A DNA stretch of 64,000 bases. Source: an uncultured delta proteobacterium (GTDB lineage: Bacteria > Desulfobacterota > DSM-4660 > Desulfatiglandales > HGW-15). Under the pieces are notes generated by a model. It had not been told where the DNA came from, made no database searches, and saw only the letters and a program-made list of their open reading frames with translations. Positions 45,860 to 63,912 of the stretch are shown here, one piece after another. The stretch spans positions 40,918 through 104,917 of the forward strand of contig CAVPDE010000011.1 in the NCBI GenBank assembly GCA_963702565.1, written 5' to 3'. How positions within the stretch are numbered: the stretch's first letter is position 1; the number at the start of each line of letters is the position of its first letter. The position numbers and the translations under genes were made by a program.

Positions 45860-46276
45860 TCATGAATCTTTATTGAATTTTGTTTTTTCCCCAAAGGGTT
45901 TCTTAGAATCCATCGGCTTCAGTCGATCATGGAATTCGGCCGTGTTCGAACCGGGCATCAGGTATTTTGAATGGGCCAGTGTTCCATCCAGGTAGGCGTT
46001 CAGCACCGCTTCCGGCTGACCTGAAATGCCCTGGATGAGCTCGATTCCGGAAGCTTTCAGCAAATCGGAGAAATGGCGGGTCACTGCGCCGCAGATCAGC
46101 GTATCGACGCAGAGATCCTGAATTCTCAGACACCGCTGGGACAAGTCCCTCTCATCCAAATAGATCTCGAAGCGGGACGTCGGGCTCTTTTCATTCAACT
46201 CAACGACCATGAGCCTCGATGCCGTGTCCAAGACGGGCGACACTTTGTTTTCCCAGACCGGTATGGCTATTTTCAT
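45860..46276 (-). CDS. NifX/NifB-C-terminal-like domain protein (second copy)
   Basis: MKIAIPVWENKVSPVLD... and ICGAV. Its stop abuts the Mrp start. Confidence 0.7.
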   Translation of the reverse strand: MKIAIPVWENKVSPVLDTASRLMVVELNEKSPTSRFEIYLDERDLSQRCLRIQDLCVDTLICGAVTRHFSDLLKASGIELIQGISGQPEAVLNAYLDGTLAHSKYLMPGSNTAEFHDRLKPMDSKKPFGEKTKFNKDS

Positions 46277-46324
46277 TGGAAAGCACCCCTTGAGTTTCTT
46301 TTCCTGGCTTTGCCCTCTCTATAC

Positions 46325-46681
46325 CTAGTGGCCTTCCACGTTTGCTTCCGTGGCTTCACCGTATTTCCCGTTCATGAAGGCGGCTATGGCATCACCGATT
46401 TTGCCTTTCACACCTACAACGACCTTGACCCCTGCGGCCTTAAGCACTCTAAAGGCCTTGGGGCCGCAGTTTCCCGTGAGGACCACATCGGGCTTGTGAA
46501 CCAGGACATTTTGAGCCGACTGGATTCCTGCACCCTGGGCGAGGTCCAAGCTTTGACTGTTCGCGGCCACATCGAAGCTCATGGTTTCGGTATCCACGAC
46601 AAGAAACTTGGGCGCCCTTCCAAGCCTGGGATCGATCTGAGCATTCAGATCATCGCCCTCGGTGGTGACTGCAATTTTCAT
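46325..46681 (-). CDS. NifX/NifB-C-terminal-like domain protein (third copy)
   Basis: MKIAVTTEGDDLNAQIDPRLGRAPKFLVVD and VVLTGNCGPKAF. The start was moved to ATG 46681. Confidence 0.75.
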   Translation of the reverse strand: MKIAVTTEGDDLNAQIDPRLGRAPKFLVVDTETMSFDVAANSQSLDLAQGAGIQSAQNVLVHKPDVVLTGNCGPKAFRVLKAAGVKVVVGVKGKIGDAIAAFMNGKYGEATEANVEGH

Positions 46682-46750
46682 CTCTCTTGTCTGTCCTCCT
46701 TTGACCATACTCGCGCGCATTCCACTTGCACCATCGCTATCCTTTGCTAG

Positions 46751-46952: not shown

Positions 46953-48299
46953 TCATGACAGAACCTGTTTTTCGGGAGGCTCGATGTGGAGGCGTTTCAT
47001 TTTGCGCCACAGGGTCGTCGGGTGGATGCCCATCTCCGCAGCCGTTGCGGCTCTGTTCCACTGATTGCGCTTGAGGACCTCTCGAATGTAACTACTTTCC
47101 ATCTCACCCAAGGAGGACGGCCTGGTTTCCGGGGGTCGGTTCATCCTGCTCTCCTCCGAGTTCCTGAAGAAATCCGGGAGGTGTTCAATACCGATCGTTC
47201 CGTTCTTGCAAACGACCGTGGCGTACTCGATGATGTTTTCCAGCTCCCGGACGTTTCCTGGAAAATCATGGGACATGAGGATGGGGAATGCTTCGGGGGA
47301 GAGGCCCTGGATCTCCTTGCCGCTCAGACGGCAGAATTTCCGTATGAAGTGTTCCACCAGGATGGGGATGTCTTCTCTCCTGTCGCGCAGAGGAGGAAGA
47401 ACGAGCTTGACCACGTTGATGCGATAGTAGAGGTCCTGTCTGAACTTTCCTTCTTCCACCAGGCTCTGGAGGTTTTTGTTTGTAGCGGCAACGATCCGGA
47501 CATCCGTTTTCAGAAACTTCGTGCTTCCAAGGGGCTCATAGGTCTTATCCTGAAGCACTCGAAGGAGGCGAACCTGCAGGGCAGGAGAAATGTCTCCGAT
47601 TTCATCGAGAAAGAGGGTCCCTCCATTGGCCACGGCTAGCCGACCGGGCTTGTCTTTGAAGGCCGTGCTGTGGGCGCCTTTTTCGTAGCCAAAGAGCTCC
47701 GATTCCAAAAGGGTGTCAGGCAGAGACCCGCAGTTGATCGTGATTAGAGGCCCTGTCTTCCTCGGGCTCAGCGCGTGAATCGCCTTGGCGAACAGCTCCT
47801 TGCCCGTGCCGCTTTCGCCCTCCAACAGAATCGTGGCGTCGCTTTCTGAAATCTGCTCCAGGATCCCGAAAAGCCTGCGCATTTCTTTGTTCTTGCTGAT
47901 GATGTCCTGGAAAGAGTGACGCTTTGTAAGCTCTTTGCGAAGTTCTTCGACCACGCTCAAGTCTCGAAAGGTTTCCACCCCCCCGATGACGGAATCCTGT
48001 TCATCTCTTAGCAGGGCCGTGGAAATGCTGACAGGGACTCGTTCTCCGTGAAGGTTGACGATGTAAATGGATTGATTCAGAACGGGGTGGCCTGTAGCCA
48101 TGGTGTGTTTCAGAGAGCAGCGATTTTCGCAAATACTGGCTCTGAACACTTCCCAGCATTGACGGCCGATGGCTTCTTCTTTCTTAATCCCTGTAATTTT
48201 TTCTGCAGAGCGGTTGAAAGAAGTGATCTTCAAATTCGAGTCCACCGTAAAAACGCCATCTGCGATGCTGTCGAGGATGATCTGCGTCCGGTTTTCCAC
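46953..48299 (-). CDS. PAS-domain sigma-54-dependent (NtrC/Fis-family) transcriptional activator with an atypical GAFTGA loop
   Basis: It has a PAS domain (SFNRSAEKITG) carrying CWEVFRASICENRCS, an AAA+ domain (GESGTGKE, RIVAATN, R-finger RREDI) and a C-terminal Fis-type HTH (AAAEMGIHPTTLWRKMK). The GAFTGA position reads GAHSTA. Confidence 0.85.
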   Translation of the reverse strand: MENRTQIILDSIADGVFTVDSNLKITSFNRSAEKITGIKKEEAIGRQCWEVFRASICENRCSLKHTMATGHPVLNQSIYIVNLHGERVPVSISTALLRDEQDSVIGGVETFRDLSVVEELRKELTKRHSFQDIISKNKEMRRLFGILEQISESDATILLEGESGTGKELFAKAIHALSPRKTGPLITINCGSLPDTLLESELFGYEKGAHSTAFKDKPGRLAVANGGTLFLDEIGDISPALQVRLLRVLQDKTYEPLGSTKFLKTDVRIVAATNKNLQSLVEEGKFRQDLYYRINVVKLVLPPLRDRREDIPILVEHFIRKFCRLSGKEIQGLSPEAFPILMSHDFPGNVRELENIIEYATVVCKNGTIGIEHLPDFFRNSEESRMNRPPETRPSSLGEMESSYIREVLKRNQWNRAATAAEMGIHPTTLWRKMKRLHIEPPEKQVLS

Positions 48300-48318: not shown

Positions 48319-49626
48319 CTATTCTCCCTCATCATCTTCTTCGTCAAAGACGATCTCGTCCCTCTCGTATTGGGCATCCCGCAGGGCATGGGCTTTTTCC
48401 ACTTCCTCTTCGCTCCAGGGCTCCACAATGAGCGAATCAGCCACTAGCTCCCACAAGTACTTGGTCTCAATGTCCAAGCCGAATTCTTTGGTCAGGCCTT
48501 TCATGATCTGGTCACGGCAATTGTGGCAGGGGGTAATGACCAACTTTGCTCCTGTGTCCCTGATCTGTTGCGCCTTAACCCTTCCGTAGTAAATTCTTTC
48601 GTCCGAGTAAGGCATGGCCCATGCGCCGCCGCCGGCGCCGCAGCAGTAGTTGTTCATCCGGTTGGGGTACATTTCCACATAATGCTCGCAGCACTGCTGG
48701 GTGATCCACCGGGGCTCTTCAAAGTAGCCATGGCCGAAAGCCTTCTGGCCTTTCCTTCCGTAATTGCACGGGTCATGCACGGTCGTGAGTTCTTCGTGGA
48801 TGGTTTTGTCCAGTTTGATTCTTCCCGTCTCGATGTATTCTTTCAGGAGATCGTGGACCGATACGACCTTGTATTTCTTGAAAACTTCGGGAAACCAGTT
48901 TTGCAGACCAAGCCTGGTCGCGTAGTAAGCGTGCCCTCACTCGGGCAAAAGGAGCGTCTTACACTCCAGCCTCTCCATGTGCTCGACGATACGACCCACG
49001 AGCGTCTTCATGGACTCATCATCTCCTGAGAAGAGCCCCCAATTGACTCCTTCCCAGTTGTACGAAGGTACGGTCCAGTCCTCCTTGGCCGCATAAAAGA
49101 TGCGCCACCAGAACTTCATGTCATCCGGCTCCCCAAAGGGTTCTTTGGAGTTGATTGTGACGAGGACGTTGGCTCCCTTTTTATCCACAGGCACATAGAA
49201 CCCAGGGAAACCATCCGCTTCGAGCTCTTTACCGAGGTCAGCGAGGAGGAAGAGAAAATCCGGTTTGGGAATGCCGAGGTTGTTCCCTCTTTGAAGGTCC
49301 ATGACCACGCCCTTGTGGATGGGGCCCGGGACCTTGTCTCTTTCGCGAAGGGTTCTGGCTCTTCGCATCATCTTGAGGATTTCCACTCCCTGAGGGCACG
49401 CGTATTCGCAACGGCCGCAGAGGGTGCAGATCCAGGGGAACCTCGAATCAATGAGTTCCTGGTCTAATCCCAGCGCAGCCATGCGGACAGCCTTTCTGGG
49501 GTCCATGTTGTCAACGCCTGTGACTGGGCAACCGCTCGCGCAGGTGCCGCAGGTGAAACAGACATCCGCCCACTCAGGGGACACTCTCAGTTTGCTCTCT
49601 TTTCGGTTAATGACCAAAGGTTCCAT
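48319..49626 (-). CDS. HdrD/GlpC-like Fe-S oxidoreductase (2x[4Fe-4S] + CCG domain), selenocysteine-containing (in-frame TGA 48937-48939)
   Basis: Track ORFs 48937-49626 and 48319-48780 are in the same frame and are separated only by a TGA plus 52 open codons. The read-through sequence is ...LLLPE-U-GHAYYATRLG...DPCNYG...NYCCGAGGG...PCHNC (C-x40-CC-x37-C-x2-C). The hairpin GACCA-GGCT-TGGTC lies 18 nt after the TGA. Confidence 0.75.
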
Positions 49627-50152: not shown

Positions 50153-50995
50153 CTAATATTCGGGAGGCATTTGTTTAAGTTGAGCCAGTGAGAAAACAGG
50201 TCCATCCTTGCACACATACTGGTCTCCGATGTTGCAGCGACCGCAAATGCCGATGCCGCACTTCATACGCATTTCCAGAGAGAGAATGATCCTGTCCGGG
50301 GGAAACCCCAGTTTCTCCAGCACCGGTTGAGTGAACTTGATCATGATCGGAGGTCCGCACACAATGGCTATGGCATTGTCTGCGCTCTTGATTTTCTGCT
50401 CCGTAATCGTGGGCACAAATCCGGTGTTGTATTTCCAGCTCGGATCGTTCGTGCTGTCCACGGTGATGTGCATGTGAATATCGTCCCTCCGCTCCCAAGC
50501 GGCGAGTTCCTCCTTGTAAAGGAGCATTCCCGGGCTTCGGGCTCCGTACACCACCGTGATGTCCTTGAATCGCGACCGGTTGTCCGGATGAAGCATGTAG
50601 ACAATGCTGGAGCGAAGGGTGGTGAAAGCGAAACCGCCGCCGACGATGACCACATTCTTTCCCTCCATCTCCTCCCAGGGGTACCAGTTTCCCAGAGGGC
50701 CGCGGATCCCCATCACTTCGCCCTCTTTCATGTTGTGAAGGTAGGTGGTCACCTGGCCGACCTTGTTCACCGTAAAGGTGACAAATCCTTTTTCCGTAGG
50801 GGAAGAGGCGATGCCGATCGGGATCTCTCCTTTCCCTGCTATGGAGAGCTCTGCAAACTGACCCGGAGTATAGGCGAACTTCCTTTCGTCCTCAGGATCA
50901 AGGAAAACGAACCTGAAAGTCTTCAGGTTTTTGTCTTCGGTCTCCGTGACGATCTTGTCGATTCGGACCGGGTAAGGAAGATAGGGATTTTGCAT
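50153..50995 (-). CDS. FAD/NAD(P)-binding oxidoreductase with C-terminal [2Fe-2S] (AsrB / sulfhydrogenase-gamma / FlxA-like)
   Basis: PGQFAELS, GEIPIGIAS, GPLGNWY, VVIVGGGFAF, and C-terminal RMKCGIGICGRCNIG...VCKDGPVF. The start was moved to ATG 50995, since upstream codons translate a repeat. Confidence 0.8.
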   Translation of the reverse strand: MQNPYLPYPVRIDKIVTETEDKNLKTFRFVFLDPEDERKFAYTPGQFAELSIAGKGEIPIGIASSPTEKGFVTFTVNKVGQVTTYLHNMKEGEVMGIRGPLGNWYPWEEMEGKNVVIVGGGFAFTTLRSSIVYMLHPDNRSRFKDITVVYGARSPGMLLYKEELAAWERRDDIHMHITVDSTNDPSWKYNTGFVPTITEQKIKSADNAIAIVCGPPIMIKFTQPVLEKLGFPPDRIILSLEMRMKCGIGICGRCNIGDQYVCKDGPVFSLAQLKQMPPEY

Positions 50996-51018
50996 CAGAC
51001 TCACACTCCTTCTCCAAG

Positions 51019-51104
51019 TTGGAGTAATGGAGTACTGGAGTAGTGGAGTGTTGGGAATCGCAGTTCTGTTCACTCCATTACTCCATTACTCCATCATTCC
51101 ATCC
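51019..51104. repeat. TGGAGTNN / NNACTCCA-type inverted arrays (8-nt period)
   Basis: TTGGAGTA ATGGAGTA CTGGAGTA GTGGAGTG TTGGG, a centre, then CACT CCATTACT CCATTACT CCATCATT CCATCC. Confidence 0.85.
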
Positions 51105-51107
51105 TTA

Positions 51108-52142
51108 TTATCCGTTCATCAATTCAAATACTTTTCGAATATCGATGTTGACGGGGCAGAACTGGACACATCGCCCGCACCCGACGCATGCTGGCCCGTT
51201 CCCGTACTTGTCCACGTAATACTTCAGCTTGTGCATAAACCGCTGCCTGACCCTCTGAAGCTTCTTGTCCCGGGGATTGTGGCCGGACCCATGAAGGGTG
51301 AAGAGCGGGAACATGCAGGCATCCCAATTCCGGATCCTGTCCCCTTCTTTTCCTGACACTTCGTCCTGGATGTCAAAGCACCAGCAGGTGGGACAGAGAA
51401 ATGTGCAGGTTCCGCAGTTGATGCACGCAAAAGAGACTCTCTCCCAGAAAGGGGCGTTGAAAAGCTCATTGACCGCTTTCTCCCGGAGGTGATCCACGTG
51501 CACCCTGGAGGAGTTTTTTTTCTCCGCTGCTTTTGGAAGGCTTAGCGCCTTCTTGAAGAGGGAGTCGGCTGCCTCTGAACCCAGCTCGACCTTTTCCAGG
51601 AAAGCCTCGCCTTTGGGCGTGAGGCTTCTCACCAGGAAGCGGTCGCCCAGGTCGACCATGAGCGCATCCAGACCTTTCTCGCTGAAGGGGCCGCTTCCCA
51701 CAGAGGTGCAGAAGCAGGAGGCGCAAGGGTCGTTGCATCCGAAGCCGACAAGGGTGGTGGTTTCCATGCGGCGGACCCACCACGGGTCCTGGAACTGAGG
51801 ATTGTCGAAATTGATCCTCACCAACTCAAAGGCAAAAGCGTCGCAAGGCCTTATTCCCACGATCACCTGGGGAGAAAAGTCCTTCGGTGCCTCCTTGACG
51901 ACGTGCGCGTCCCCTTTGCTCTCGTCCAGAGTGTACTCGAACATCCGCTCTGACTGCGGAAGCATAACCGATTTCGGGGAAAGCCTGGTGTTCTGGAATT
52001 CAAAATTGGGTTTGCGGCCTGTTTCCAGAAGCCTGAAGTTGTGGAAGTCCCCCTCCTTCACAGGGACATACACTTTGTAAACGCCTTGCAGCCTTTGTAG
52101 TGCCTCAGTCCATTGTTCCTTGCTGAATGATTTTTTAAGCAT
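51108..52142 (-). CDS. 4Fe-4S dicluster protein (AsrA / sulfhydrogenase-beta / FlxB-like)
   Basis: CINCGTCTFLCPTCWCFD and CVGCGRCVQFCP. 344 aa, paired with the AsrB-like subunit. Confidence 0.75.
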   Translation of the reverse strand: MLKKSFSKEQWTEALQRLQGVYKVYVPVKEGDFHNFRLLETGRKPNFEFQNTRLSPKSVMLPQSERMFEYTLDESKGDAHVVKEAPKDFSPQVIVGIRPCDAFAFELVRINFDNPQFQDPWWVRRMETTTLVGFGCNDPCASCFCTSVGSGPFSEKGLDALMVDLGDRFLVRSLTPKGEAFLEKVELGSEAADSLFKKALSLPKAAEKKNSSRVHVDHLREKAVNELFNAPFWERVSFACINCGTCTFLCPTCWCFDIQDEVSGKEGDRIRNWDACMFPLFTLHGSGHNPRDKKLQRVRQRFMHKLKYYVDKYGNGPACVGCGRCVQFCPVNIDIRKVFELMNG

Positions 52143-52154
52143 AGCATGAATCCT

Positions 52155-52264
52155 TAGGAGTATTGAATGCTGGAGTAATGGAGTACTGGAGCGCTGGAGT
52201 AATGGTGGAATAAAGAAAAAGAGGATACCCAGTACTCCAAGACTCCATCACACCATCACTCCAT
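52155..52264. repeat. TGGAGTNN / NNACTCCA-type inverted arrays (third copy)
   Basis: TAGGAGTA TTGAATG CTGGAGTA ATGGAGTA CTGGAGCG CTGGAGTA ATGGTGGA, a centre, then CCCAGTACT CCAAGACT CCATCACA CCATCACT CCAT. Confidence 0.85.
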
Positions 52265-53215
52265 TTATTTGACAAACTCGTTATAGTCGTCCACTCGATA
52301 AACATCCAGAGGCGGCCGCTGATCCATGCGGGTCCCTGCCTCCCAGCCGAAGAGCTCAAAAGCATCCTTGTTCAGCTTCTTGGTGAACTGCCTCATGGAG
52401 ATCCCCACGGGGCAAACCCTCTCACAAGCACCGCAGTCCGTGCACCTCCCGGCACAATGATAAGCCCGCAAAAAATGAAAGGTCATGGTATCCACGGGAT
52501 CCGTGCTTTTCCCTACCCACTGGGGCCGCGACTCATCGACGAAGCAAGTGGGGCAGTAGCAGAGCGGGCAAACGTTTCGGCATGCGTAGCACCGTAGGCA
52601 GGATGAAATAAGCTGGGTGAAAAACTTCCGCTTTTCTTCGGGGCTCTTCTTTTCCAACACCTCAATGTCTTTGAAGGGGTTGACGCCCTCCTGTTCAGGA
52701 ACCGGGTCAGCGACCATCTCGTCGTATTCGACGGGATTTCGATGAAGGCAAGTGGCGCAATTGGTCCTCAAGAAATCCTTTTTCTTAAAGGTCTCCTGAA
52801 AACCGTTTCCGCTCACCGTGAAGGAGTCATTGGTTTCAGTGACATCGAGAATCTCCTTGTTCCCCATCGTTCTCTTCACCGCTCGGTGGTCGATCATGCC
52901 GGTGCAGGGAAGGCCCACGATGTAGAGCTGTTCCCGCTTAATCTGGTTTTCGATGATGTGGGTCACGATGTTCCTGGAATTGCATCCATTGGCGACAATC
53001 CCGACGCGGTCGGTCCGCTTGGTCAGGTAATTGCAGAGGTTCAGACCGCAGTGGCTGTCCCAGTGAAGCAAGTCGACCTCCGCAGGATTCTTGACCAGCA
53101 CTGGTTCATTCATCATGGGCACTGAGCCCTTCCGGTAGCCGATGAAAACGTCGACCGTTCCCTTTTCCAGGAGCTTTCGAGCGATGTCTCTGATTTTCTG
53201 GGTATACTCAAGCAT
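52265..53215 (-). CDS. Fe-S cluster-binding oxidoreductase subunit (FlxC-like)
   Basis: CLRCYACRNVCPLCYCPTC and CTDCGACERVCP. The ATG at 53213-53215 overlaps the mvhD stop (TGATG). Confidence 0.65.
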   Translation of the reverse strand: MLEYTQKIRDIARKLLEKGTVDVFIGYRKGSVPMMNEPVLVKNPAEVDLLHWDSHCGLNLCNYLTKRTDRVGIVANGCNSRNIVTHIIENQIKREQLYIVGLPCTGMIDHRAVKRTMGNKEILDVTETNDSFTVSGNGFQETFKKKDFLRTNCATCLHRNPVEYDEMVADPVPEQEGVNPFKDIEVLEKKSPEEKRKFFTQLISSCLRCYACRNVCPLCYCPTCFVDESRPQWVGKSTDPVDTMTFHFLRAYHCAGRCTDCGACERVCPVGISMRQFTKKLNKDAFELFGWEAGTRMDQRPPLDVYRVDDYNEFVK

Positions 53216-53658
53216 CAAACCACCTCAGCTCTTCTCTTAACAAGATAAGTTGCCTGACCGGTCTCCTTGACCGCCTTGATGACTTCGGTGGCAACCTCCA
53301 CGAACTTGGTTGCTTCGGCAGAGGAAATCCACGAAAAGTGCAGTCTTCCCGGTTCCAGCCCCACATGCTCGATCAGATTCTTGAACAGTGCGAACTTGCG
53401 TCTTGCGAAGTAATTACCTTCCAGGTAATGGCAGTCGCCGGGGTGTCAGCCGGAAACCCAAACACCGTCGGCGCCGTGTCGGAACGCGGCGAGGATGAAT
53501 TTGGGGCTCACCCGGGCAGAGCAGGGCACCCGGATAACCCGGATATTGGACGGGTACTGGAAGCGGCTGACCCCTGCCAGGTCTGCCGCTCCGTAGCTGC
53601 ACCAGTTGCACAAGAATGCGGTTATCTTAGGCTGCCAGTCGTTCATAGCTCTCTCCAA
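53215..53658 (-). CDS. mvhD: MvhD/FlxD-like [2Fe-2S] electron-transfer subunit, selenocysteine-containing (in-frame TGA 53446-53448)
   Basis: Track ORF 53446-53658 ends ...[12 protein letters not shown]. The same frame stays open for 76 more codons: [51 protein letters not shown]...; G-U-HPGDCHY is the Cys/Sec position of MvhD. The hairpin ATTACC-TGGAA-GGTAAT lies about 20 nt after the TGA. Confidence 0.8.
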
Positions 53659-53813: not shown

Positions 53814-56800
53814 TTACATTTCGTTAATCATCGCCATGATCTGCCCTTCCTCGAATCCCTTGAGGTTGAGCGCTCCTGAGCGGCAGGAAGCCACGCAAAG
53901 ACCGCAGCCTTTGCAGAGCACCGGGTTGACCTCCGCCTTACCCGCGAAAGGCCCCTTCTGAATAAAAGAGGGCGCCGAGTAGGGGCAAATCTCCACACAG
54001 ACCCCGCAGCTGCTGCAGACGGCAGGGGTCGTGTAGGCGACCATGCCGCTCACAGAGATAGTCTTTCTGGCCAGCAGAGTGACCGCTCTGGAGGCGGCTG
54101 CCTGGGCGTGGGCCACCGACTCATCGATGGGCTTTGGATAGTGCGCCATACCGCAAAGGAAGACCCCGTCCGTGGCAAACTGGGATGGGCCCAGCTTGGC
54201 GTGAGCCTCCACAAAGAACCCGTCCTCGCTCACGGGGACCTTGAAGAACTGGGCAAGCTTTTCGTCCTTGTAGGGAACGATGGCCGAGGCCAGGGCAACC
54301 AAACCCGCCTTGATCAGGATGGGCCGCTGGAGCACATGATCCATCACCTCGATCTCAAGTCCCTCTGTACCGGCGGAGACTTTCGGTTTCTGAGAAACAG
54401 AGAACCGGATGAAGAGAATCCCCGCTTCTCGCGCCTTCCTGTAAAGGAGTTCCCGCTCGCCGTAGGTTCGGATGTCCCGGTTGAGAATGTAAACATCCAT
54501 GGCTGGGTTCAGCTCTTTGAGGTGGAGGGCGCTTTCAATGGAGTGGGTGCAGCAGACTCTCGAACAATAGGGTCTTTGCGGTTCGCGCGAGCCCACGCAC
54601 TGGATGAACACGGCGGTTTGAACCTTCTTGAGCGATGGGTCGTGATCGATGAATCTGCGGTCCAACTCCTGGTGAGTCACCACCAGGGGATTTTTCCCAT
54701 AAAGGTACTCCTCGGGCTTGTACTCACAGCATCCCGTGGCCAGCACGGCGATTCCGTGGTCAATGGTTCCCTGGAGGGTACTGGACTGAAACGTGGACTT
54801 GAAGTTTCCGACGAACCCTTCGACCTGGGTCAGCTCGGCTCCGAGGTGGACGCGGATGTTTTTGTCACCCTGGACCGACTGCACAAGGTCCCCCAGGTTT
54901 TTCTGGATATCTTCTCCCTGCCACGTCCTGTAAAGGTTTAGGGCCTGACCGCCGAGCACGCGGGATTTTTCGATGATGTCCACCTCATAGCCCTGGTCGC
55001 TCAAGGTCTTTGCCGCCACCATCCCGGAGATGCCGCCACCGACCACGAGCGCCCGCTGGTTGATATCCAGGACAGCCTCAGGGAGGGATTCCATGAGAGC
55101 CACCTTGGCCACGGCCATGCGCACGAGGTCTTTGGCTTTGTTCGTGGCCTCCTGAGGATTGTCTTTGTGGACCCAGGAGTCCTGGTTGCGGATGTTGGTC
55201 ATCTCGAAGAGGTACTTGTTCAGCCCGGCGTTGACAAGGGTTTCCTGAAAGAGAGGCTCGTGGGTCTTGGGCGTGCAGGCCGCCACCACGATCCGGTTGA
55301 GGGCGTTCGCCCTGATCACCTGGGCCATGGTGTCCTGAGTGTCCTGCGAGCAGGAGTAGAGGTTGTCCGCTACGTACTCGACGTAGGGAAGCTTCTTCGC
55401 ATAGTCGCGCACAGCCGGTACATCCACCACGCCGCCGATGTTGATGCCGCAATTGCAGACAAAGACGCCGATGCGAGGCCGCTCCCCCCGAATGTCTATC
55501 TGCTCGGGCACCTCTTTCGCTTTGGTCAGCGTATTGCGCGCGCTACTCAAAAGGCCTCCTGCTTGGGCAGCCGCCGAACTCGCTTCGATCACGGACTGGG
55601 GAATGTCCTTGGGTCCCTGGAAAGCCCCGCACACGTAAATGCCTTCCCTGGAGGTAGCCACTGGAGCAAAAGAACCGGTGCGGCAGAATTGCGATTCGGT
55701 GAGGTCGATGTCGAGCTTGTCGGCCAATTCCACGACCTCCGGCGAGGTCTCCATCCCTACGGAAAGGACGACCATGTCAAAAGCCTCTTGGCGCAATTCA
55801 CCGTTTTCAGTGGCATACTTGACGCTGAGATCTTCGGACTGCGAGACGGCCTCCACGGAGTGAACGCGGGACCGGATGAAGCGAACGCCGTGTTTTTCCC
55901 GGGCCGCGTCATAGTACCTTTCGAACTCCTTTCCGTGGGTCCTCATGTCCATGTAGAAGATGGCGCAATCGAGATCAGATCCTGAATGCTCCTTGGCGAT
56001 GACCGCCTCTTTGATGGCATACATGCAACAGACGGAAGAACAATAGGGATGGTCACACTGATGCATGTCCCTGGACCCGACGCACTGGAGCCACGCGATT
56101 TTCTTGGGCTCCTTGTGATCGGACATGCGGGCGAGATGCCCCAGGGTAGGACCGGACGCTGAAAGGATCCTCTCGAACTCCATGGAGGTGACCACGTTCG
56201 GAAGCTTGGAGTAGCTGTAAGTATCGTACTTGGAGGGGTCAAAGGGCTGAAAGCCCGGTGCAAGGATGATGGCCCCTACTTGTACCGTCGTCCTTTTTTC
56301 CTGGTCATCAAATTTGATAGCTCCTGAGGAACAGAATTTCTCGCAAGCTTTGCACTTACCTTTTTCGAAGAAAATGCAGTTATCTTTGTCGATGGCATAT
56401 TTCAGAGGCACGGCCTGGGCGTAAGGGACATAAATGGCTTTCCGCTTGATCAAGCCTTCATTGTAATCGTCTTCAACCTTTTTGGGACATTTCTCAGCGC
56501 AGGTACCGCAACCAATACACTTCTCAGGGTCCACGTATCGCGGATGCTGCAGAATGTCCACTTGTAGATTTCCGGGCTCTCCCCTGACATTTAGAACTTC
56601 TGAAAGCGTAAGCAATTCGATGTTTAGGTGCCGGCCGACCTCGACCAGTTTGGGGGAGATAATTCACATCGCACAATCATTAGTGGGAAACGTCTTATCC
56701 AGTTGGGCCATGACCCCGCCTACAGACGGGGACTTCTCAACGAGGTAGACGTGGTAGCCGGAATCTGCCAGGTCAAGCGAGGCTTGCATCCCTGCAATAC

Positions 56801-57120: not shown

Positions 57121-58188
57121 CTAAGATTGCGGAAGAGGTAATATGATTCTGAACGTGCTTCCCTTGCCGGGGCTGCTGAGGACCTCGATTCTGCCGTCGT
57201 GCTCCTTCACGATTTCATGAACCACCATGAGCCCGAGGCCGGTGCCGTCGGTTCCCTTTGTGGAGAAGAAGTGGGTGAAGATTTTCTCACAGGTGGTGTC
57301 GTCCATCCCAATCCCGTCATCGACCACCTCCAACATGAGATGGCGACGGTCATAGAAATCGGCTTTCAAAGTGACGGCGTGAGAGTCTTTTCCTTTGTCC
57401 CTGCGGCACGCTTCCAGCGCATTGGAAAGTAGGTTGATCAACATCCGGCGCATGGCCCCGGGATCCATATGAACCACAGGAAGGCGTGGGTTGGAGTTTG
57501 CTCTCAGTTTGCACTCGATGGACTGAGCTTTTTCGTAAAAAAACGCAATGGACTCCATGAGCATTTTATCAAGGACAACTGCTTCATAGACCGGCTTTCT
57601 TTTCTTGGTGGAATAAAGGATATTCTGGACCAGGCCGGAAATCTCCTGGATGTTTTTCTTGACCACAGACCATCCTTTCTTCATCAGTTCCTGATCTTGG
57701 TCCTTCAGCGCTTCATCCACCACATAGGCGCCCCCCTGGAGACCCTCCAAAATGTTCTTGATATCATGGGAAAGGATCGCCACAGACTGGCCGAGGAGAG
57801 TGAGTCCCTTCTGGGCCTCTTTCACTTTGCTGATGTTGGACGACAGCTCCAGAACAGCGACTACATTGCCCAGGGCATCCGTAATGGGGGAAGAGTAAAT
57901 CACCACGTGGACGGGTTCCCTTCCGCCCAGATGCACGACCTCTTCGCTTACGTGGGCCTTCTTGTCCTGAAAGGTTTCCCAGACCGGGCAGGAAGAGCAA
58001 CGGACGGAACTCCTTAAATAGACTTCATGGCACTTCTTGCCGATTGCCTCGCCGAAGTCATTCCGAAAGGTCTGGTTGGTTTGCAGGATGGTGAAAGATC
58101 GGTCTTGAATGGAGACATAGCATGGGAGCAGATCGACAATCGCCTTGTACCCAAGGTCAAGGAGTGTGGGATGGCTATTCTCGCCCAT
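57121..58188 (-). CDS. Cytoplasmic sensor histidine kinase with a Cys-rich PAS domain
   Basis: PAS domain with PCY...C-x10-C-x2-CP, HisKA (LSHDIKN) and HATPase_c (DDGIGM, FFSTK, GTGLGL). Confidence 0.9.
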   Translation of the reverse strand: MGENSHPTLLDLGYKAIVDLLPCYVSIQDRSFTILQTNQTFRNDFGEAIGKKCHEVYLRSSVRCSSCPVWETFQDKKAHVSEEVVHLGGREPVHVVIYSSPITDALGNVVAVLELSSNISKVKEAQKGLTLLGQSVAILSHDIKNILEGLQGGAYVVDEALKDQDQELMKKGWSVVKKNIQEISGLVQNILYSTKKRKPVYEAVVLDKMLMESIAFFYEKAQSIECKLRANSNPRLPVVHMDPGAMRRMLINLLSNALEACRRDKGKDSHAVTLKADFYDRRHLMLEVVDDGIGMDDTTCEKIFTHFFSTKGTDGTGLGLMVVHEIVKEHDGRIEVLSSPGKGSTFRIILPLPQS

Positions 58189-58235: not shown

Positions 58236-58628
58236 CTATTTCAAGGCGTTCCGTATTGCTTCCAGGATCTCATCAGGCTCAGGCGGTTTCTCGATGTAGG
58301 CCGCGGGCTCGGGGATTTTCTCCCCCTTGTATTCATCCAGCACTTTCTGGGAGTGGAAAAAGGTTTTCTTGGAGAGCGCCGAGAGCATGATCACAGGAAT
58401 CCCCTTCAGTTCAGGGTCGTTCCTTAACTCGCGATAGAGGTTGATCCCGCTCTCTTTGGGCATCATGATGTCCAGGATAATGAGAGCCGGCCTGCTCTTG
58501 CGGGCCACTTCCAGCCCCTGGAAACCGTCTTGAGCCGTGAGAGGCTTAAAGCCGTTGGTTTCCAGCAGGGTGGTGATGAAGGTTCTCATGTCCAATTCAT
58601 CATCAACGACAAGGACTTTCTTCGCCAT
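58236..58628 (-). CDS. Stand-alone response-regulator receiver protein
   Basis: KKVLVVDDELD, IILDIMMP and PVIMLSA. Confidence 0.9.
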   Translation of the reverse strand: MAKKVLVVDDELDMRTFITTLLETNGFKPLTAQDGFQGLEVARKSRPALIILDIMMPKESGINLYRELRNDPELKGIPVIMLSALSKKTFFHSQKVLDEYKGEKIPEPAAYIEKPPEPDEILEAIRNALK

Positions 58629-58693: not shown

Positions 58694-59197
58694 CTAGTAC
58701 ATGCTTCCAGGCAGAGTGAACTGTTTTGCCGGATTGCGGATCGCGATGACATGGCAATGGGCGTATTTGGAGACATTGCCCACCGTGCTTCCGTGAACCA
58801 TGCGATCCTGTTCAGCTTTGCCGAGGGCCCCCATGACGATCACATCAATGCCGTTTTTCTTCGCATAACGGATGATTTCCACATCGGGCGACCCGCTCTT
58901 GACAACGAACAAGTAGTTCTTGAAATCTCCGAGCTTCTTCTCGTACTCTTTCTTGAGCGCCTCTCTGGCCCGCTTCTCCACGTCTTCGTCATAGAAGGCC
59001 TCGCCGCCGGGAGCCCCTGAAGGAACATGTTCGTCAACCACATTCCTCAGATAGGAATAGGAGGAGTGGGGAACATGAAAGATGTGGAGCTTGGCGCCAT
59101 GCTTCTTCGCAAGGTCGAAGGCGTGCAGGAAAGCGATGTTGGCGTCCTCTGAAAAATCCGTGCAAAAAAGGATGTTTTTGTACTCTATCATAGTCAA
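58694..59197 (-). CDS. Universal stress protein (UspA family)
   Basis: ILFCTDFSE, and VIVMGALGK...GSTVGNV (an ATP-binding G-2x-G-9x-G(S/T) type motif). Confidence 0.85.
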   Translation of the reverse strand: MTMIEYKNILFCTDFSEDANIAFLHAFDLAKKHGAKLHIFHVPHSSYSYLRNVVDEHVPSGAPGGEAFYDEDVEKRAREALKKEYEKKLGDFKNYLFVVKSGSPDVEIIRYAKKNGIDVIVMGALGKAEQDRMVHGSTVGNVSKYAHCHVIAIRNPAKQFTLPGSMY

Positions 59198-59220: not shown

Positions 59221-60366
59221 TCATGCGGAGGGCTTCTTATCGGGAAGCCTCACCCTGAAGACCGTCCCCTTCCCTTTTTCGGACGAGACGTCAATGACCC
59301 CTCCGTGCTCATCAACGATTTTCTTGGCGATCATCAAGCCAAGGCCCGTGCCCCTCGAACCCTTTGTGCTGAAAAAAGTCTGAAAAATTTTCTTTCTCGT
59401 CTCTTCATCCATGCCGCAGCCATTGTCCGTCACCTGGTATTCCACGGCCCACCCCTCGGGCTTTAACGTCCGGAGGGACACCTCGCATGTTTTTGAAGCG
59501 CAGGAAATGTCCGTGCATGCATCAATCGCGTTGGTCACCAGATTGAGGAGAACCCGGTGAATCCCTTCGCGGTCAAACCACGCGTGTGCTAAACCCTGAT
59601 CCGGTGCGATCTTTAACGCAACACCCGTCTCTGAGGCACGGGAAAGCATTAGATCATAAACCTCCTTGGCAGGTCCATTCGGATCGCAGAGTTGCACCTC
59701 AGGCTCCCTCTCCTTGGCGTAGTTCAGGAGATCCACCGCCATGCCTTTGATCTTTTGAACGTTCCCCTTGATCATTTGCCAGCCCTGGCTGAGATAGGTC
59801 CTGTTCTCCAGATCAATGCCTTTTTCAAGGACGTACATCCCACCCGTCAGACCGGCGGTGATATTCTTGATGGCGTGGGCCAACCCTGCCACGGTCTGGC
59901 CCACAGCCGCAAACCTTTCCGCTTCCACAAGCTTCCGGCTCTTTTCTTCAACCAGCGTCTCCAGGTTTTCCGTGTACTCCCTGAGCCTCTTTTTGTATGA
60001 AAGCTTCTCCAGTGCCCTTCGAAGGGCAATGTCGAGCGTTTCATCGTGGATGGGCTTTGTGATGAAATCAGACGCATCGTACTTGAGACTCTGTATGGCA
60101 AGCTCCATTTCGCCGTGTCCTGTGATCATGATGACTTCGGTGTTGGGGCTTTCTGCCTTAATGCGCTTGAGCAGTTCGATCCCATCCATCCCGGGCATCT
60201 TAATGTCGGTGAGAATGACCTCGGGACCCGCTTCATGGAAAACCCGAAGCGCCTCTTCACCGTTTTCAGCGGTCAGCACCCGGTAGCCCCGGTCGGCCAG
60301 AGAGATGCCCAGGACTTTGAGAATGCCCGGTTCATCATCCACAAGGAGCAATTGCTTTTCCATCAA
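59221..60366 (-). CDS. Hybrid response regulator-histidine kinase (REC + HisKA + HATPase_c)
   Basis: LLLVDDEPG and ILTDIKMPGMDG, then GLAHAIKN, then DNGCGM, FFSTK and GTGLGL. Confidence 0.9.
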   Translation of the reverse strand: MMEKQLLLVDDEPGILKVLGISLADRGYRVLTAENGEEALRVFHEAGPEVILTDIKMPGMDGIELLKRIKAESPNTEVIMITGHGEMELAIQSLKYDASDFITKPIHDETLDIALRRALEKLSYKKRLREYTENLETLVEEKSRKLVEAERFAAVGQTVAGLAHAIKNITAGLTGGMYVLEKGIDLENRTYLSQGWQMIKGNVQKIKGMAVDLLNYAKEREPEVQLCDPNGPAKEVYDLMLSRASETGVALKIAPDQGLAHAWFDREGIHRVLLNLVTNAIDACTDISCASKTCEVSLRTLKPEGWAVEYQVTDNGCGMDEETRKKIFQTFFSTKGSRGTGLGLMIAKKIVDEHGGVIDVSSEKGKGTVFRVRLPDKKPSA

Positions 60367-61850
60367 GCCTCGTGAATCCGGGGAAACCTGATGATAAAGG
60401 TCGCCCCTTCCCCTTCCTTGCTTTCCACCTTGATCGTGCCGTCATAATCCTGCACAATGCCGTAACTGATGGAGAGACCGAGCCCTGTCCCCTTGCCCAC
60501 CTTCTTGGTCGTGAAGAAAGGTTCGAATATCCTGTCGAGAAGGGGTTCAGGGATTCCGATGCCGGTATCGGTCACTTCAATGGCGACCATCTCATCTTCA
60601 ACCTTTGTTTTCAAGATGATCCGTTTCACTTCTTCCTTCGGGGCTCTTTGCTCCCCTTTCTTCTCGATGGCGTCTCTGGCATTGATCAGGAGGTTGACGA
60701 AAACCTGCTCCAGCCGGTTGGGATCAGCCAGAACCGCGGGAACATTCTCATCAAGGTCCTCCACGACCTCGATTTCCCGCAACTTCAGTTGCTGCTTGAA
60801 AAAGTCAACCGCCCGTCTCAGGACGTTGTTGACCTGGACCTTCTCCTTTGCCACGTCTGATTTCCGGCCGAACTCCCTCATGTGGCCGATGATTTTGGAT
60901 GCCCTGTCCACGTGGGTGTCAATCTCTTCGGCCATGGTCCTGAGAATGTCTGTCCTCATCGGCTCCCCGTTGTCGGCCTTTCTTCGCAAGAAGCTGCTTG
61001 CCGTCTTAATGACCGAGAGGGGCTGATTCAACTCGTGGGCAACGCCCGTGGCCATCTCTCCCAGGGTGGCCATTTTGCTCGCCTGGATCAAGTGCTGCTC
61101 GGCCATCAAACGCACCGTGATGTCGCTGGCGGTCACAAGAAGAACCTTCCAGCCGTTGAATTCAGAGGAAGAAATGTGAATGCTGACATAGATGACCTTC
61201 CCGTCCTTGCGTACCTGTCTTGCCCGGTCGATGATGTTGGTGGTTTTGAGACTGACCTCATAGCTCTTCCGATCGTTGCCCTCGAATAGATCAAGGAAGG
61301 AGGTCATATAAATCTCCTCTTTGGAGAACCCATACACGGCTGCAACGCTTTCATTGCAGTCGAGGACCTTGAGGTTCTGCGCGTTCAAAACAAAGACCGG
61401 GTTCGGGATCGTGTTGAAAATGATCCGGTATTTCTCTTCTGATTTTCTTGCCTCCCTTTCGAGGGACTTCATCTGCGTCAGATCGAGGCTCATTTCCATT
61501 GCCGCGATCACCTCCCCTTTATCGTTCTTGAGGGGGGAGGTCTTCACCAGCCAGTAGGTCTCGGTGCCCTCCTTGGTCACGGCCTGTTCTTCGCTCACAT
61601 GGGGTCGTCCGTCTTCAAAGGTCTTGAGGACAGGGCAGTTAGGGCATTTTTCGGAACGGCCTTTGTAAGCCTTGAAGCAGAAATCCCCCGGTTCTGGTGA
61701 GAACATCTTTTCGAACTCCCGGTTGTATCTCAGGAGCTTCAGATCCCGATCCTGGACCGTGATGTAGCAGGGAGACTCCTCAAAGAGGGTCTGGTATTCG
61801 TTCTGGTGGCGATTGGATGATTCTTGTTTAGCCTTGATCAAAGGGTCCAT
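60363..61850 (-). CDS. Sensor histidine kinase with two PAS domains, the first Cys-rich
   Basis: PAS1 with PCY...C-x11-C-x2-CP (paralogous to 57121-58188), then PAS2, HisKA (GVAHELNQP) and HATPase_c (DTGIGI, FFTTK, GTGLGL). Confidence 0.9.
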
Positions 61851-61916: not shown

Positions 61917-63200
61917 TTACTCCTCTTCTTCGTCCTCCTTGGGGAGCATATGTTCCGGGATCACCATGTGTTCGGAAATCACTTCCTTGAAGTGGACGGC
62001 CTTGATGTCGAGCTTGTGCTCCTTGGCCAGGTCCCGGATCTGGTCGATGCAGTTGTGGCAGGGGACGAGAACCAACTTGGCGCCTGTTTCGCGGATCTGG
62101 TCGGCTTTGACTTTCCCCGAGGCCAGGCGATACTTCTTCATTTCGCCGCCCATGGGCATGGCACCGCCGCCGCCGCCGCAGCAATAGTTGTAGTTGCCCT
62201 GGTATTTCATAGGGCGAAAATCCTCGGAGACCAGTTCAGCCAAATGCCGGTTCTTTTCTGCAAGCCCTCCGCTCCGGATGACATTGCAGGGGTCCTGAAC
62301 CGTTGTGGGCACTTTGATCTTCTCTTTGAGCTTGATCCGGCCGTCCCGGAGGTAGTCGTGAAAGAGCTCCACGGAGTGAATCACTTCCTGTTTCGGCTCG
62401 TATCCCAACCAAATGGGCGCTTCGTACCGAAGCGCTCGATAGGCGTGGCCTCACTCGGTTACGGCGACTTGTTTCACCTCCAGTTCCTCGGCTCGCTTGA
62501 AGGTGTTCTCCACGATCATGCGGGCGGTAGGCGCATCATTGATGAACATGGCCAGGTTCGTGTCGTCCCATCCCTTCTCGCTCGGGACCGTCCAGTCCTC
62601 ACCGGCCACCGCGAAAATCTTGGCCACCTCCATGATGTCCTGGGGATAGAACTTGGGCTCCCTGGCGTTGACCGTGTACATGATCTTGGCCCCCTTCTTG
62701 TCGATGGGGATCTTGAGACCTACCACTTCAGCCGCAGCTTCCTCCTCGCACCACTGGATGGTTTCGACCCAGTCCTCCTTGGACACGGCCATCTGGTTGC
62801 CGGTCAGCTTGTAGTTTTCAACGGCTTTCTTGAGACCTTCGGGAGCGATTCCCAGAGAGGTCAGCAGGCCCCTCAGGGTGGAGATGAGGAAGCCGATATC
62901 AATGCCAAAGGGGCAGTAAAGCGTGCAGCGCCTGCACATGTTGCACTCGTAGTAAATGGTCTTGTAAATCTCTTGGAGATACGCCTTGTCCACCCGGCCT
63001 TTTTTCTTGAGCAGGTCTCTCAAAAATCTCACTTTGTAGGCGGGGATCATTTTGGGATCTTTCCCGCTCGCCAGATAGAAGTGGCAGGTGTCGGCGCACA
63101 TGCTGCAGTGGGTGCAGGTTTCGATCCACGTCTTCAAACGGGCACCCAATCGGGGTTTGAGGAAATCCATGATCGCTTTCGGGTTCACGTCTTCAGTCAT
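61917..63200 (-). CDS. DsrK/HdrD-like Fe-S oxidoreductase (2x[4Fe-4S] + CCG domain), selenocysteine-containing (in-frame TGA 62451-62453)
   Basis: Track ORFs 62451-63200 and 61917-62408 are in the same frame. The read-through sequence is ...QVAVTE-U-GHAYRALRYE...DPCNV...NYCCGGGGG...PCHNC. The hairpin GCGCTTCG-GTA-CGAAGCGC starts 15 nt after the TGA. AAAGGAG lies upstream of ATG 63200. Confidence 0.8.
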
Positions 63201-63246
63201 AGAACAACTCCTTTAACCAGGAAAATCTCTTTCAAAACCCACCAGG

Positions 63247-63912
63247 CTATATTGAGTATCCTCTTCTTCCGAATTCGATGCCGCTGGCTGCCCGGGAGAA
63301 GAAGAAAAGCACGGAGTGGGAGAGTCTTGTAAAAGGGATCAGGATGAGCATGAGCTCTGCGGAGAGAACATGAAAGAGCCTCATGTTGTCACCGAGAAAC
63401 TTGATGCTGTCCACGGTCCCGTGAGTGAGGAAATAGCCGGTCAGGAAAGGGAGGACCGTCACCACGATGAGGAGGTAATCGCCAGCCGTGGTAAGGAGGC
63501 GGAGATCGGGCAAGAGTGCCCTTCTCAGGATGAAAAAAATGGCGATCGCAAGAAGGAGCAGCGTCATCCAGTCCGCCCATTTATCGGGGATAGAGGACCA
63601 GGACCACCCGAAACGCGATTCTTCCCAAAGGGAGACATGGCCTGCCAGCCAAATGGGCACCACAATGAGGCAGATGTGAAAAAGGTAGACACAGATAATG
63701 AAAACAGGGTTTTTTTTCACTGTCACATTGAGAGGCAGCAGCCACCGGGCCAAGGTGGCGAGAATGTATTTCACGCTGAAATAATTGTAGAGGGGCTTAT
63801 CCTTTGTCCGGGCGACAAAGATGAATTGGGCCATGCGGATCAGTGTTCCCATGATGAAGACAAGAAAGGCGATCCACAATAGGGGTCCTTCTGCGAACGA
63901 GCTCAAGTCCAT
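63247..63912 (-). CDS. NarI-family membrane cytochrome b-like subunit (DsrM/HdrE/HmeC-like)
   Basis: 221 aa with five or six TM helices and conserved His in TM2/TM5 positions (FHICLIV, FHVLSAE). It lies immediately upstream of the DsrK-like gene. Confidence 0.65.
   Translation of the reverse strand: MDLSSFAEGPLLWIAFLVFIMGTLIRMAQFIFVARTKDKPLYNYFSVKYILATLARWLLPLNVTVKKNPVFIICVYLFHICLIVVPIWLAGHVSLWEESRFGWSWSSIPDKWADWMTLLLLAIAIFFILRRALLPDLRLLTTAGDYLLIVVTVLPFLTGYFLTHGTVDSIKFLGDNMRLFHVLSAELMLILIPFTRLSHSVLFFFSRAASGIEFGRRGYSI

Follow-up and report, generated by a model that had tools for sequence, protein, structure and literature searches.

We analysed a 64,000-nt stretch of DNA from an uncultured delta proteobacterium (contig CAVPDE010000011.1), here called the window, in which two adjacent genes encode a predicted membrane cytochrome b and an iron-sulfur (Fe-S) protein whose frame contains a single TGA. 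The best explanation of our observations is that these genes form a two-gene operon for a membrane-bound selenocysteine (Sec) redox module, which we consider probable. Judging from the comparative data, the Fe-S protein is very likely a genuine selenoprotein with this architecture, and we see roughly even chances that the module is a quinol-linked disulfide or polysulfide reductase.

All features of the module lie on the minus strand. A previous sequence-only reading of this DNA had described the membrane gene, the Fe-S gene behind it with an in-frame TGA, and acidic C-terminal tails in the Fe-S protein and in a second, similar protein of the window (paralog 1). The coordinates, the gene order and the TGA were all reproduced, and the tails are present as quoted (KEDEEEE in the Fe-S protein; FDEEDDEGE in paralog 1). 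The membrane gene is preceded by a GGAG ribosome-binding site, and the 46-nt spacer between the two genes contains AAAGGAG. The Fe-S gene runs from an ATG at 63200 to a TAA at 61917-61919, with the TGA at 62451-62453 as its only interruption; the frame around this codon reads ...KQVAVTE-U-GHAYRALRYEAPIWLGYEPK... (QVAVTE-U-GHAYRALRYE).

In-frame TGA codons between two long open stretches are not rare, with about 40 cases in the 64-kb window. The case for Sec rests on homology on both sides of the codon and on comparative data, and not on the split itself. Searching 5.8 billion proteins brought up 2408 homologs, 120 of which were listed and read. Among these 120, Cys occupies the TGA position (TE-C-GHA[YF]) in all 112 full-length sequences bearing the GH[AGSC][YFHW] motif, and these motif-bearing Cys homologs are all single polypeptides. 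The closest relatives listed, P0043 (95% identity) and P0064 (91%), are 249-aa products whose last residues are precisely ...VTE; here gene callers have cut the same gene short.

Scanning one genome per GTDB species gave 33 orthologous loci. Thirty-two come from metagenome-assembled genomes (MAGs), the exception being Desulfovibrionales strain Dsd-1 (L025). The MAGs are labelled Desulfobacteraceae, Desulfatiglandales or 'Deltaproteobacteria', apart from one Anaerolineales (L021) and one Pseudomonadota (L023). The codon at the Sec position is TGA in 24 loci and TGC or TGT in 9; the downstream frame is open in all 33, and the C-terminal part is 75-95% identical. In a neighbour-joining tree of the orthologs, which is rough and carries no support values, the Sec forms make up one clade nested among Cys outgroups, with Cys forms at no fewer than three positions inside the Sec clade. 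The Sec/Cys pair at this codon, its presence as TGA in most orthologous loci and the conserved open frame after it bear out the earlier proposal that the TGA is decoded as Sec.

The codon is followed by a perfect 8-bp hairpin, GCGCUUCG-GUA-CGAAGCGC, that begins 15 nt past the TGA and had been proposed as a selenocysteine insertion sequence (SECIS) at a suitable spacing. Its 71-nt context folds with z = -2.85, and none of 200 shuffles folds as well. First-order Markov random sequences modelled on the window are expected to contain about 10 starts of perfect 8-bp hairpins per 64 kb; as the SECIS-compatible interval spans about 22 nt, the chance of such a hairpin falling there is therefore about 0.3%. 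The published rules for bacterial SECIS elements (PMC13188914) describe a loop of 3-9 nt with a G in its first two positions, a stem of 4-16 bp, 16-37 nt between the UGA and the loop, and a minimum free energy (MFE) of -7.5 kcal/mol or lower. The hairpin fits them, with a loop starting with G-U, a stem of 8 bp, a distance of 23 nt and a free energy of -11.6 kcal/mol when folded alone. Rfam returned no match to the hairpin, either at the gathering threshold or at E up to 10.

Conservation of the hairpin follows the TGA. Over the 25 TGA sequences (the window and 24 loci), mean entropy at third codon positions is 0.07 bits in the hairpin and 1.03 bits in flanking codons; over the nine Cys loci (eight distinct), it is 1.12 bits in the hairpin and 1.14 bits in flanking codons. 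Of the 25 TGA sequences, 24 have the complete hairpin and one (L002) keeps 7 of 8 pairs; in total, 199 of 200 pair cells are paired. In eight of the nine Cys loci the stem is down to 2-6 of 8 pairs. The ninth, L021 (TGC, locus 1864-1930), retains the hairpin intact and unchanged, a 'fossil' SECIS that indicates a recent Sec-to-Cys replacement. Fossil SECIS elements in Cys forms have been described for other selenoprotein families (Zhang et al. 2006, PMC1794560). Separately, the Anaerolineales label of the L021 MAG may be a binning error. With synonymous-site conservation found only together with TGA, and with the fit to the published model, the proposed SECIS was upheld. On this comparative support, the UGA would be recoded by SelB through the hairpin.

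Public annotation treats the TGA as a true stop, in which case the locus would yield a ferredoxin-like protein of 249 aa plus an independent CCG protein of about 160 aa, with the hairpin acting as a terminator or attenuator. The gene is split into a 249-aa '(Fe-S)-binding protein' and a CCG open reading frame (ORF) of 155-163 aa in GenBank NTV33553.1 / NTV59257.1 and in JGI gene calls (L034-L036, three metagenome contigs with an identical 249-aa product), and a consensus scan marks the hairpin as terminator-like. However, the 42 nt from the TGA to the first possible start encode GHAYRALRYEAPIW, which is conserved in Sec and Cys forms alike, and reading the sequence by eye revealed no Shine-Dalgarno-like sequence before this start. 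The Cys homologs are never split, the T-run behind the hairpin (CCATTTGGTT) is weak for a terminator, and the hairpin decays exactly where TGC or TGT replaces TGA. A true stop is thus extremely unlikely. A pseudogene produced by nonsense mutation, which would account for one in-frame stop, is next to impossible, given that the same TGA occurs in 24 species-level genomes and that the CCG cysteines are all intact in the conserved C-terminal part. Since the downstream frame is open and conserved in all loci, a pseudogene and a true stop are effectively excluded; both readings were rejected, as was an intrinsic terminator.

Two more genes of the window carry TGA at known Sec positions, at 48937-48939 in the UGH-bearing paralog 1 and at 56664-56666 in an HdrA-type CxxU motif. 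Judging from these further Sec-type genes, the organism probably uses Sec.

In the Fe-S protein, Pfam recognises a 4Fe-4S dicluster domain, Fer4_8 (residues 26-100), and one CCG domain (300-388). Fourteen Cys positions are invariant in 57 sequences: 29/32/35/39 and 86/89/92/96, which form two CxxCxxCxxxC motifs; 305, 340-341 and 381/384, which form one C-Xn-CCG-Xn-CxxC motif; and position 250, where the window protein has Sec. DsrK, HmcF and TmcB have been described with this pattern, in which two cubane clusters and a noncubane CCG cluster are accompanied by a T/GECGH motif whose Cys is strictly conserved (PMC10861901). The same work regards the T/GECGH Cys as a remnant of a second CCG motif, probably catalytic and probably essential for disulfide or trisulfide reduction. 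By sequence, Sec250 is the T/GECGH residue held by Cys in DsrK, TmcB and HmcF. The N-terminus of the Fe-S protein, read by eye from the translation, has no twin-arginine or signal-peptide-like sequence; consequently, the protein is predicted to be cytoplasmic.

An AlphaFold2 model of P0001, an 80%-identical Cys homolog, reached a predicted local distance difference test score (pLDDT) of 90. In a fold search, its best match was M. smegmatis EtfD (E 2e-13, 384 columns) and its second LutA; against HdrB from four complexes, the template modelling (TM) score was about 0.61, normalised to HdrB, over about 288 alignment columns. EtfD (9ojn_A) is also the best PDB sequence match and the sole sequence-detectable solved structure, and in this alignment the Sec position is matched by the first Cys of TCPHC, where the first CCG-like domain of EtfD ends. 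The model suggests that the C-terminal two-thirds of the Fe-S protein adopt a double-CCG-domain fold. The Pfam CCG model found no match in the N-terminal pseudo-domain (segment 160-290), whose other cysteines are lost, and hhalign of residues 160-292 against the CCG domain, global and local, found no internal repeat. We therefore place Sec at the first Cys of a lost CxxC because of the 9ojn_A alignment, the HdrB fold match and the published DsrK analysis (PMC10861901), and not because of the internal-repeat test. We regard Sec250 as the only survivor of a degenerate first CCG domain.

The membrane subunit had been described as NarI-type, with heme-ligand histidines as the feature to check. An exhaustive search yielded 564 representatives with E no higher than 0.001. 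In 66 homologs (27-67% identity), H79, H92 and H181 never vary, and H199 is conserved to at least 90%. The Pfam family Nitrate_red_gam (PF02665) is matched by 54 of these 66 members at E < 0.01, and a profile of the 66-member alignment, run against PDB sequences, reached E. coli NarI (1q16_C) at 4e-8. The FHIG, LH..L.G and PF..L.H motifs of the family line up with motifs of 1q16_C that we take to carry the NarI heme ligands H56, H187 and H205, and H92 of the window protein falls next to what would be H66. The ligand numbers H56/H66/H187/H205 reportedly stem from work by Bertero and colleagues in 2003. The NarI-type assignment with conserved ligand histidines thus held, and we predict a NarI-type cytochrome b of five helices, in which the four His are placed so as to ligate two b hemes. 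The gene is publicly labelled 'nitrate reductase gamma subunit', and an exact-sequence look-up of the 221-aa protein returned no record.

NCBIfam scores were used as a proxy for phylogeny in placing the two proteins. The Fe-S protein scored 454 bits with HmcF (NF045711, 3.8e-136, cut-off 750) and 428 bits with TmcB (NF045724, 2.6e-128, cut-off 735), far over its score with DsrK (186 bits, 8.9e-55, cut-off 400). The membrane protein scored 212 bits with TmcC (NF045723, 8.2e-63, cut-off 240) and 159 bits with HmcE (NF045716, 1.5e-46, cut-off 275). On these scores, the nearest curated families appear to be HmcF/TmcB and TmcC/HmcE rather than DsrK/DsrM. The sequence-only reading had called the module DsrMK/HdrDE-like with an HdrD-like catalytic subunit. 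Its two-subunit type, a cytochrome b with a CCG protein bearing UGH, stands; the nearest families are different ones, and the subunit has one complete CCG motif where HdrD has two.

In the mechanism we propose, which keeps the quinone-to-thiol/disulfide link that the sequence-only reading had suggested by analogy, electrons would pass from menaquinol to the b hemes of the membrane subunit, and from there through the two cubane [4Fe-4S] clusters to the noncubane CCG cluster. The selenolate would attack a cytoplasmic disulfide, persulfide or trisulfide, and the resulting transient selenenyl-sulfide would be resolved by cluster-mediated one-electron steps. By analogy, this scheme would parallel those of DsrMK with the DsrC-trisulfide (PMC10861901) and of HdrED with CoM-S-S-CoB. 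The reaction could also run in the reverse direction.

Several results count against our interpretation of the pair as a quinol-linked Sec module. No tRNA-Sec was found in the 64-kb window, where sel genes were not searched for. The hairpin stem shows no compensatory changes, with six pairs invariant and two varying by wobble only; as the stem is nearly invariant, support for the hairpin comes from TGA-linked nucleotide conservation and not from covariation. Neither module protein passes an NCBIfam equivalog cut-off, the membrane protein matches PF02665 weakly (14.8 bits vs a gathering threshold of 22.9), and an AlphaFold2 model of the membrane subunit from 25 close homologs was poor (pLDDT 57). 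No dsr-type function occurs among the annotated window ORFs, among which DsrC was not specifically searched for. Finally, Pereira and colleagues are said to have found in 2006 that menadiol did not reduce the b hemes of the Tmc complex from D. vulgaris, which weakens the quinol assumption for Tmc-like modules.

The surroundings of the pair bear on its electron partners. In the 96%-identical ortholog L001 and in L034-L036, a PNPOx-like gene is divergently transcribed upstream of the membrane gene, across a gap of about 300 nt that holds a promoter-like TTGACT...TATATA, found by eye; therefore, the pair starts its own operon. In L001 there is no additional redox subunit upstream, in line with the two-gene module described previously, and HmcA-D, TmcA and cytochrome c genes are absent from the flanks in L001 and L034-L036. 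The Cys form of Desulfocarbo indianensis (53% identity) is a bare two-gene module. These absences bear on a Tmc-like conduit, in which electrons would flow from periplasmic cytochrome c3 or hydrogenases to a cytoplasmic acceptor, not from the menaquinone pool, and the cytochrome would be encoded elsewhere. TmcC and TmcB/HmcF are indeed the best-scoring curated families, and a TmcA-like tetraheme cytochrome c3 gene adjoins the pair in L003 (82-516, upstream), L025 (7272-7766, downstream) and the more distant L038 (6477-6854, downstream), from which it follows that the family spans versions with and without cytochrome c. However, 31 of the 33 genome loci, L001 included, have no multiheme c-type cytochrome gene in their flanks, the scores stay under the TmcB and TmcC cut-offs, and no TmcD-like gene is evident among the genes adjoining the module, for which no explicit TmcD search was run. 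We give this conduit a minor chance.

The fold search raises another alternative, that the pair serves as electron input in the manner of EtfD, GlpC or LutA, with electrons passing from a cytoplasmic donor through the CCG cluster and the b hemes to menaquinone and with no disulfide substrate. M. smegmatis EtfD, a fused cytochrome b and HdrC/B-like protein, is the best match by both structure and PDB sequence, and LutA ranks second by structure. Set against this, Sec/Cys exchange at just one position that is not a ligand typically marks thiol-based redox catalysis, the residue at the Sec position has been tied to disulfide or trisulfide reduction (PMC10861901), and the module has no etf, glp or lut genes next to it. 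We consider this input role unlikely.

The module has several known relatives. Sec-UGH Fe-S oxidoreductases are an established family, known since at least 2006. 'Fe-S oxidoreductase (GlpC)' selenoproteins were reported in Syntrophobacter, Desulfotalea and Desulfovibrio in 2006-2007 (PMC1794560, PMC1914089), with Desulfotalea psychrophila DP1009 as an example (PMC1914089), and a 2026 review lists the GlpC-like family with the motif 'UGH' (PMC13188914). The window protein, with VTE-U-GHAY in a protein carrying Fer4_8 and CCG, belongs here: it is an HdrD/GlpC-type Fe-S protein of the Deltaproteobacteria with one Sec, Cys homologs and a bacterial SECIS. That literature puts the emphasis on a soluble glpC-hdrA-frhD-frhG-frhA operon; the window protein comes instead with a membrane cytochrome b of its own, and neither HdrA nor Mvh genes adjoin the module.

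With Tmc and Hmc of Desulfovibrio, the module shares the pairing of a cytochrome b with a CCG protein, the single CCG motif and the T/GECGH motif, and its gene order, membrane subunit then Fe-S subunit, is that of hmcEF. It differs from TmcABCD and HmcABCDEF in scoring below the equivalog cut-offs, in having Sec in place of Cys, and in that TmcA/TmcD or HmcA-D are absent from the window and from 31 of 33 loci, with the limit on TmcD given above. DsrMK, part of the menaquinol:DsrC-trisulfide oxidoreductase DsrMKJOP (PMC10861901), likewise joins a diheme cytochrome b to a two-cubane, one-noncubane protein, and the extra Cys in GECGH of DsrK is the residue that is Sec in the window protein. The lower score with DsrK than with HmcF sets the module apart, as does the fact that no dsr genes were seen flanking it in the loci examined. 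HdrDE of Methanosarcina also combines a membrane cytochrome b with an HdrD-type subunit and links a membrane carrier to disulfide reduction; HdrD has two complete CCG motifs and two noncubane clusters, whereas the first motif of the window protein is degenerate, with only Sec left. In Desulfobacterium autotrophicum, a Sec-containing HdrD4 and a membrane-fused, Sec-containing HdrF2 have been reported (PMC2702500). HdrF2 and mycobacterial EtfD (PDB 9ojn) resemble the module in uniting transmembrane and HdrC/B-like CCG parts, but are single fused polypeptides linked to GlpAB or ETF, whereas the window has two genes and no such partners near. Less described so far is that the selenoprotein has a separate TmcC-like cytochrome b as its partner and that the signalling genes next to the pair are conserved; in other respects the module is ordinary for its known class.

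As a rule, Sec takes the place of catalytic redox Cys only. The natural Sec/Cys exchange at T/GECGH agrees with the lone Cys being a redox-active catalytic residue in DsrK, TmcB and HmcF. A catalytic function of this Cys, and not of the noncubane cluster only, has been proposed, and the Sec/Cys pair is independent support for it. The two-ORF annotation implies that the selenoprotein is under-reported in dozens of Desulfobacteraceae and Desulfatiglandales MAGs. Moreover, with Sec in 24 orthologs and Cys in 9, including one Cys form that retains a fossil SECIS, the clade provides a natural system for Sec-to-Cys replacement and SECIS decay. The features of the module and its neighbourhood are collected in Table 1.

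Table 1 Features of the predicted Sec module and of related or neighbouring genes in the window.
Feature	Position	Strand	Remark
Membrane subunit gene	63247-63912	-	221 aa; predicted TmcC/HmcE-like cytochrome b, NarI superfamily
Candidate heme ligand His79	63676-63678	-	invariant in 66 homologs
Candidate heme ligand His92	63637-63639	-	invariant in 66 homologs
Candidate heme ligand His181	63370-63372	-	invariant in 66 homologs
Candidate heme ligand His199	63316-63318	-	at least 90% conserved in 66 homologs
Fe-S selenoprotein gene	61917-63200	-	428 codons, 427 aa; TmcB/HmcF/DsrK/HdrD-type, predicted cytoplasmic
Cys29/32/35/39	63084-63116	-	fits first [4Fe-4S] cluster (CxxCxxCxxxC)
Cys86/89/92/96	62913-62945	-	fits second [4Fe-4S] cluster (CxxCxxCxxxC)
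Predicted Sec codon UGA, residue 250	62451-62453	-	motif VTE-U-GH; Cys in homologs, TGA in 24 of 33 orthologous loci
Predicted SECIS hairpin	62417-62435	-	8-bp stem, GUA loop, 23 nt from UGA to apical loop
Cys305, Cys340-341, Cys381/384	62049-62288	-	single complete five-Cys CCG motif
PAS histidine kinase (first kinase)	60363-61850	-	Pfam
Receiver-kinase hybrid	59221-60366	-	Pfam
Universal stress protein	58694-59197	-	Pfam
Receiver	58236-58628	-	Pfam
Second PAS kinase	57121-58188	-	Pfam
HdrA/HdrL-like selenoprotein (Pyr_redox_2, Fer4), predicted	ORF 53814-56615 plus about 104 codons upstream; TGA 56664-56666	-	
Paralog 1	48319-49626; TGA 48937-48939	-	LLLPE-U-GHAYY; 34% identical to the studied protein

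The five signalling genes between 57121 and 61850 are conserved downstream neighbours, associated with the module in gene order. In 15 of the 33 loci (59-96% identity), the Fe-S gene has the first kinase downstream of it, and most of these loci share the whole order of genes. The window kinase is a soluble form of 495 aa; in L011, L016, L022, L032 and L033 (e.g. L016:7383-9665) it is about 760 aa long, with an N-terminal transmembrane segment and an extra domain, and L020 has a truncated long form. In both kinases, four Cys (C-x29-C-x10-C-x2-C) and one His of the N-terminal PAS_4 domain are invariant (16 and 10 sequences, the window included), which suggests a metal, Fe-S or thiol-switch sensor.

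One could propose from this arrangement that the pair is the redox input of the signalling cluster, passing the state of the quinone pool to the thiol/disulfide or metal-cluster state of the four-Cys PAS domains. The conserved order of module, kinase, receiver-kinase hybrid, universal stress protein, receiver and kinase would agree with it, as would the invariant Cys of both PAS domains, and a scan found no terminator-like site between the Fe-S gene and the first kinase. However, regulator genes beside a target operon are common, as with rrf1 and rrf2 downstream of the D. vulgaris hmc operon, and the cluster is absent in about a dozen loci with enough flank and in the more distant L037 and L038. 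Such an input role is quite unlikely. The stronger version, in which the module is not primarily respiratory and acts as the sensor front-end of the cluster by catalysed quinone sensing, we consider very unlikely.

In two loci with Sec forms and no kinase cluster, the next downstream genes (L023:7396-8841 and L028:4558-6003) look like HdrC (CxxCxxCxxxCP) and HdrB (two CCG-type motifs).

Paralog 1 has its best NCBIfam match in HmcF (1.8e-62) and no membrane partner. Upstream of it are a receiver gene, three flavin/Fe-S genes (50153-53218) and the HdrA-like selenoprotein, a context of the classical glpC-hdrA type. Its candidate SECIS, GACCA-GGCU-UGGUC, 17 nt after the TGA, was read off the sequence and is absent from the MFE fold. 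In the HdrA-like gene, the TGA stands in FPTNDCAM-U-IISPK, the CxxU motif of HdrA, and a predicted SECIS-like 7-bp hairpin with an AGGU loop begins 15 nt after it. With read-through of this TGA, the 933-aa ORF would therefore really encode about 1040 aa or more.

Paralog 1 is followed by a sigma-54 activator (46953-48299, minus strand) whose PAS domain contains C-x8-C-x3-C. Just downstream of this regulator, the region 44918-46720 (minus strand) encodes a Mrp/NUBPL-type Fe-S cluster carrier ATPase and two small proteins. One of the latter has no Pfam match and the other matches Nitro_FeMo-Co (dinitrogenase FeMo-cofactor-binding); the genes of this region may be related to cluster assembly.

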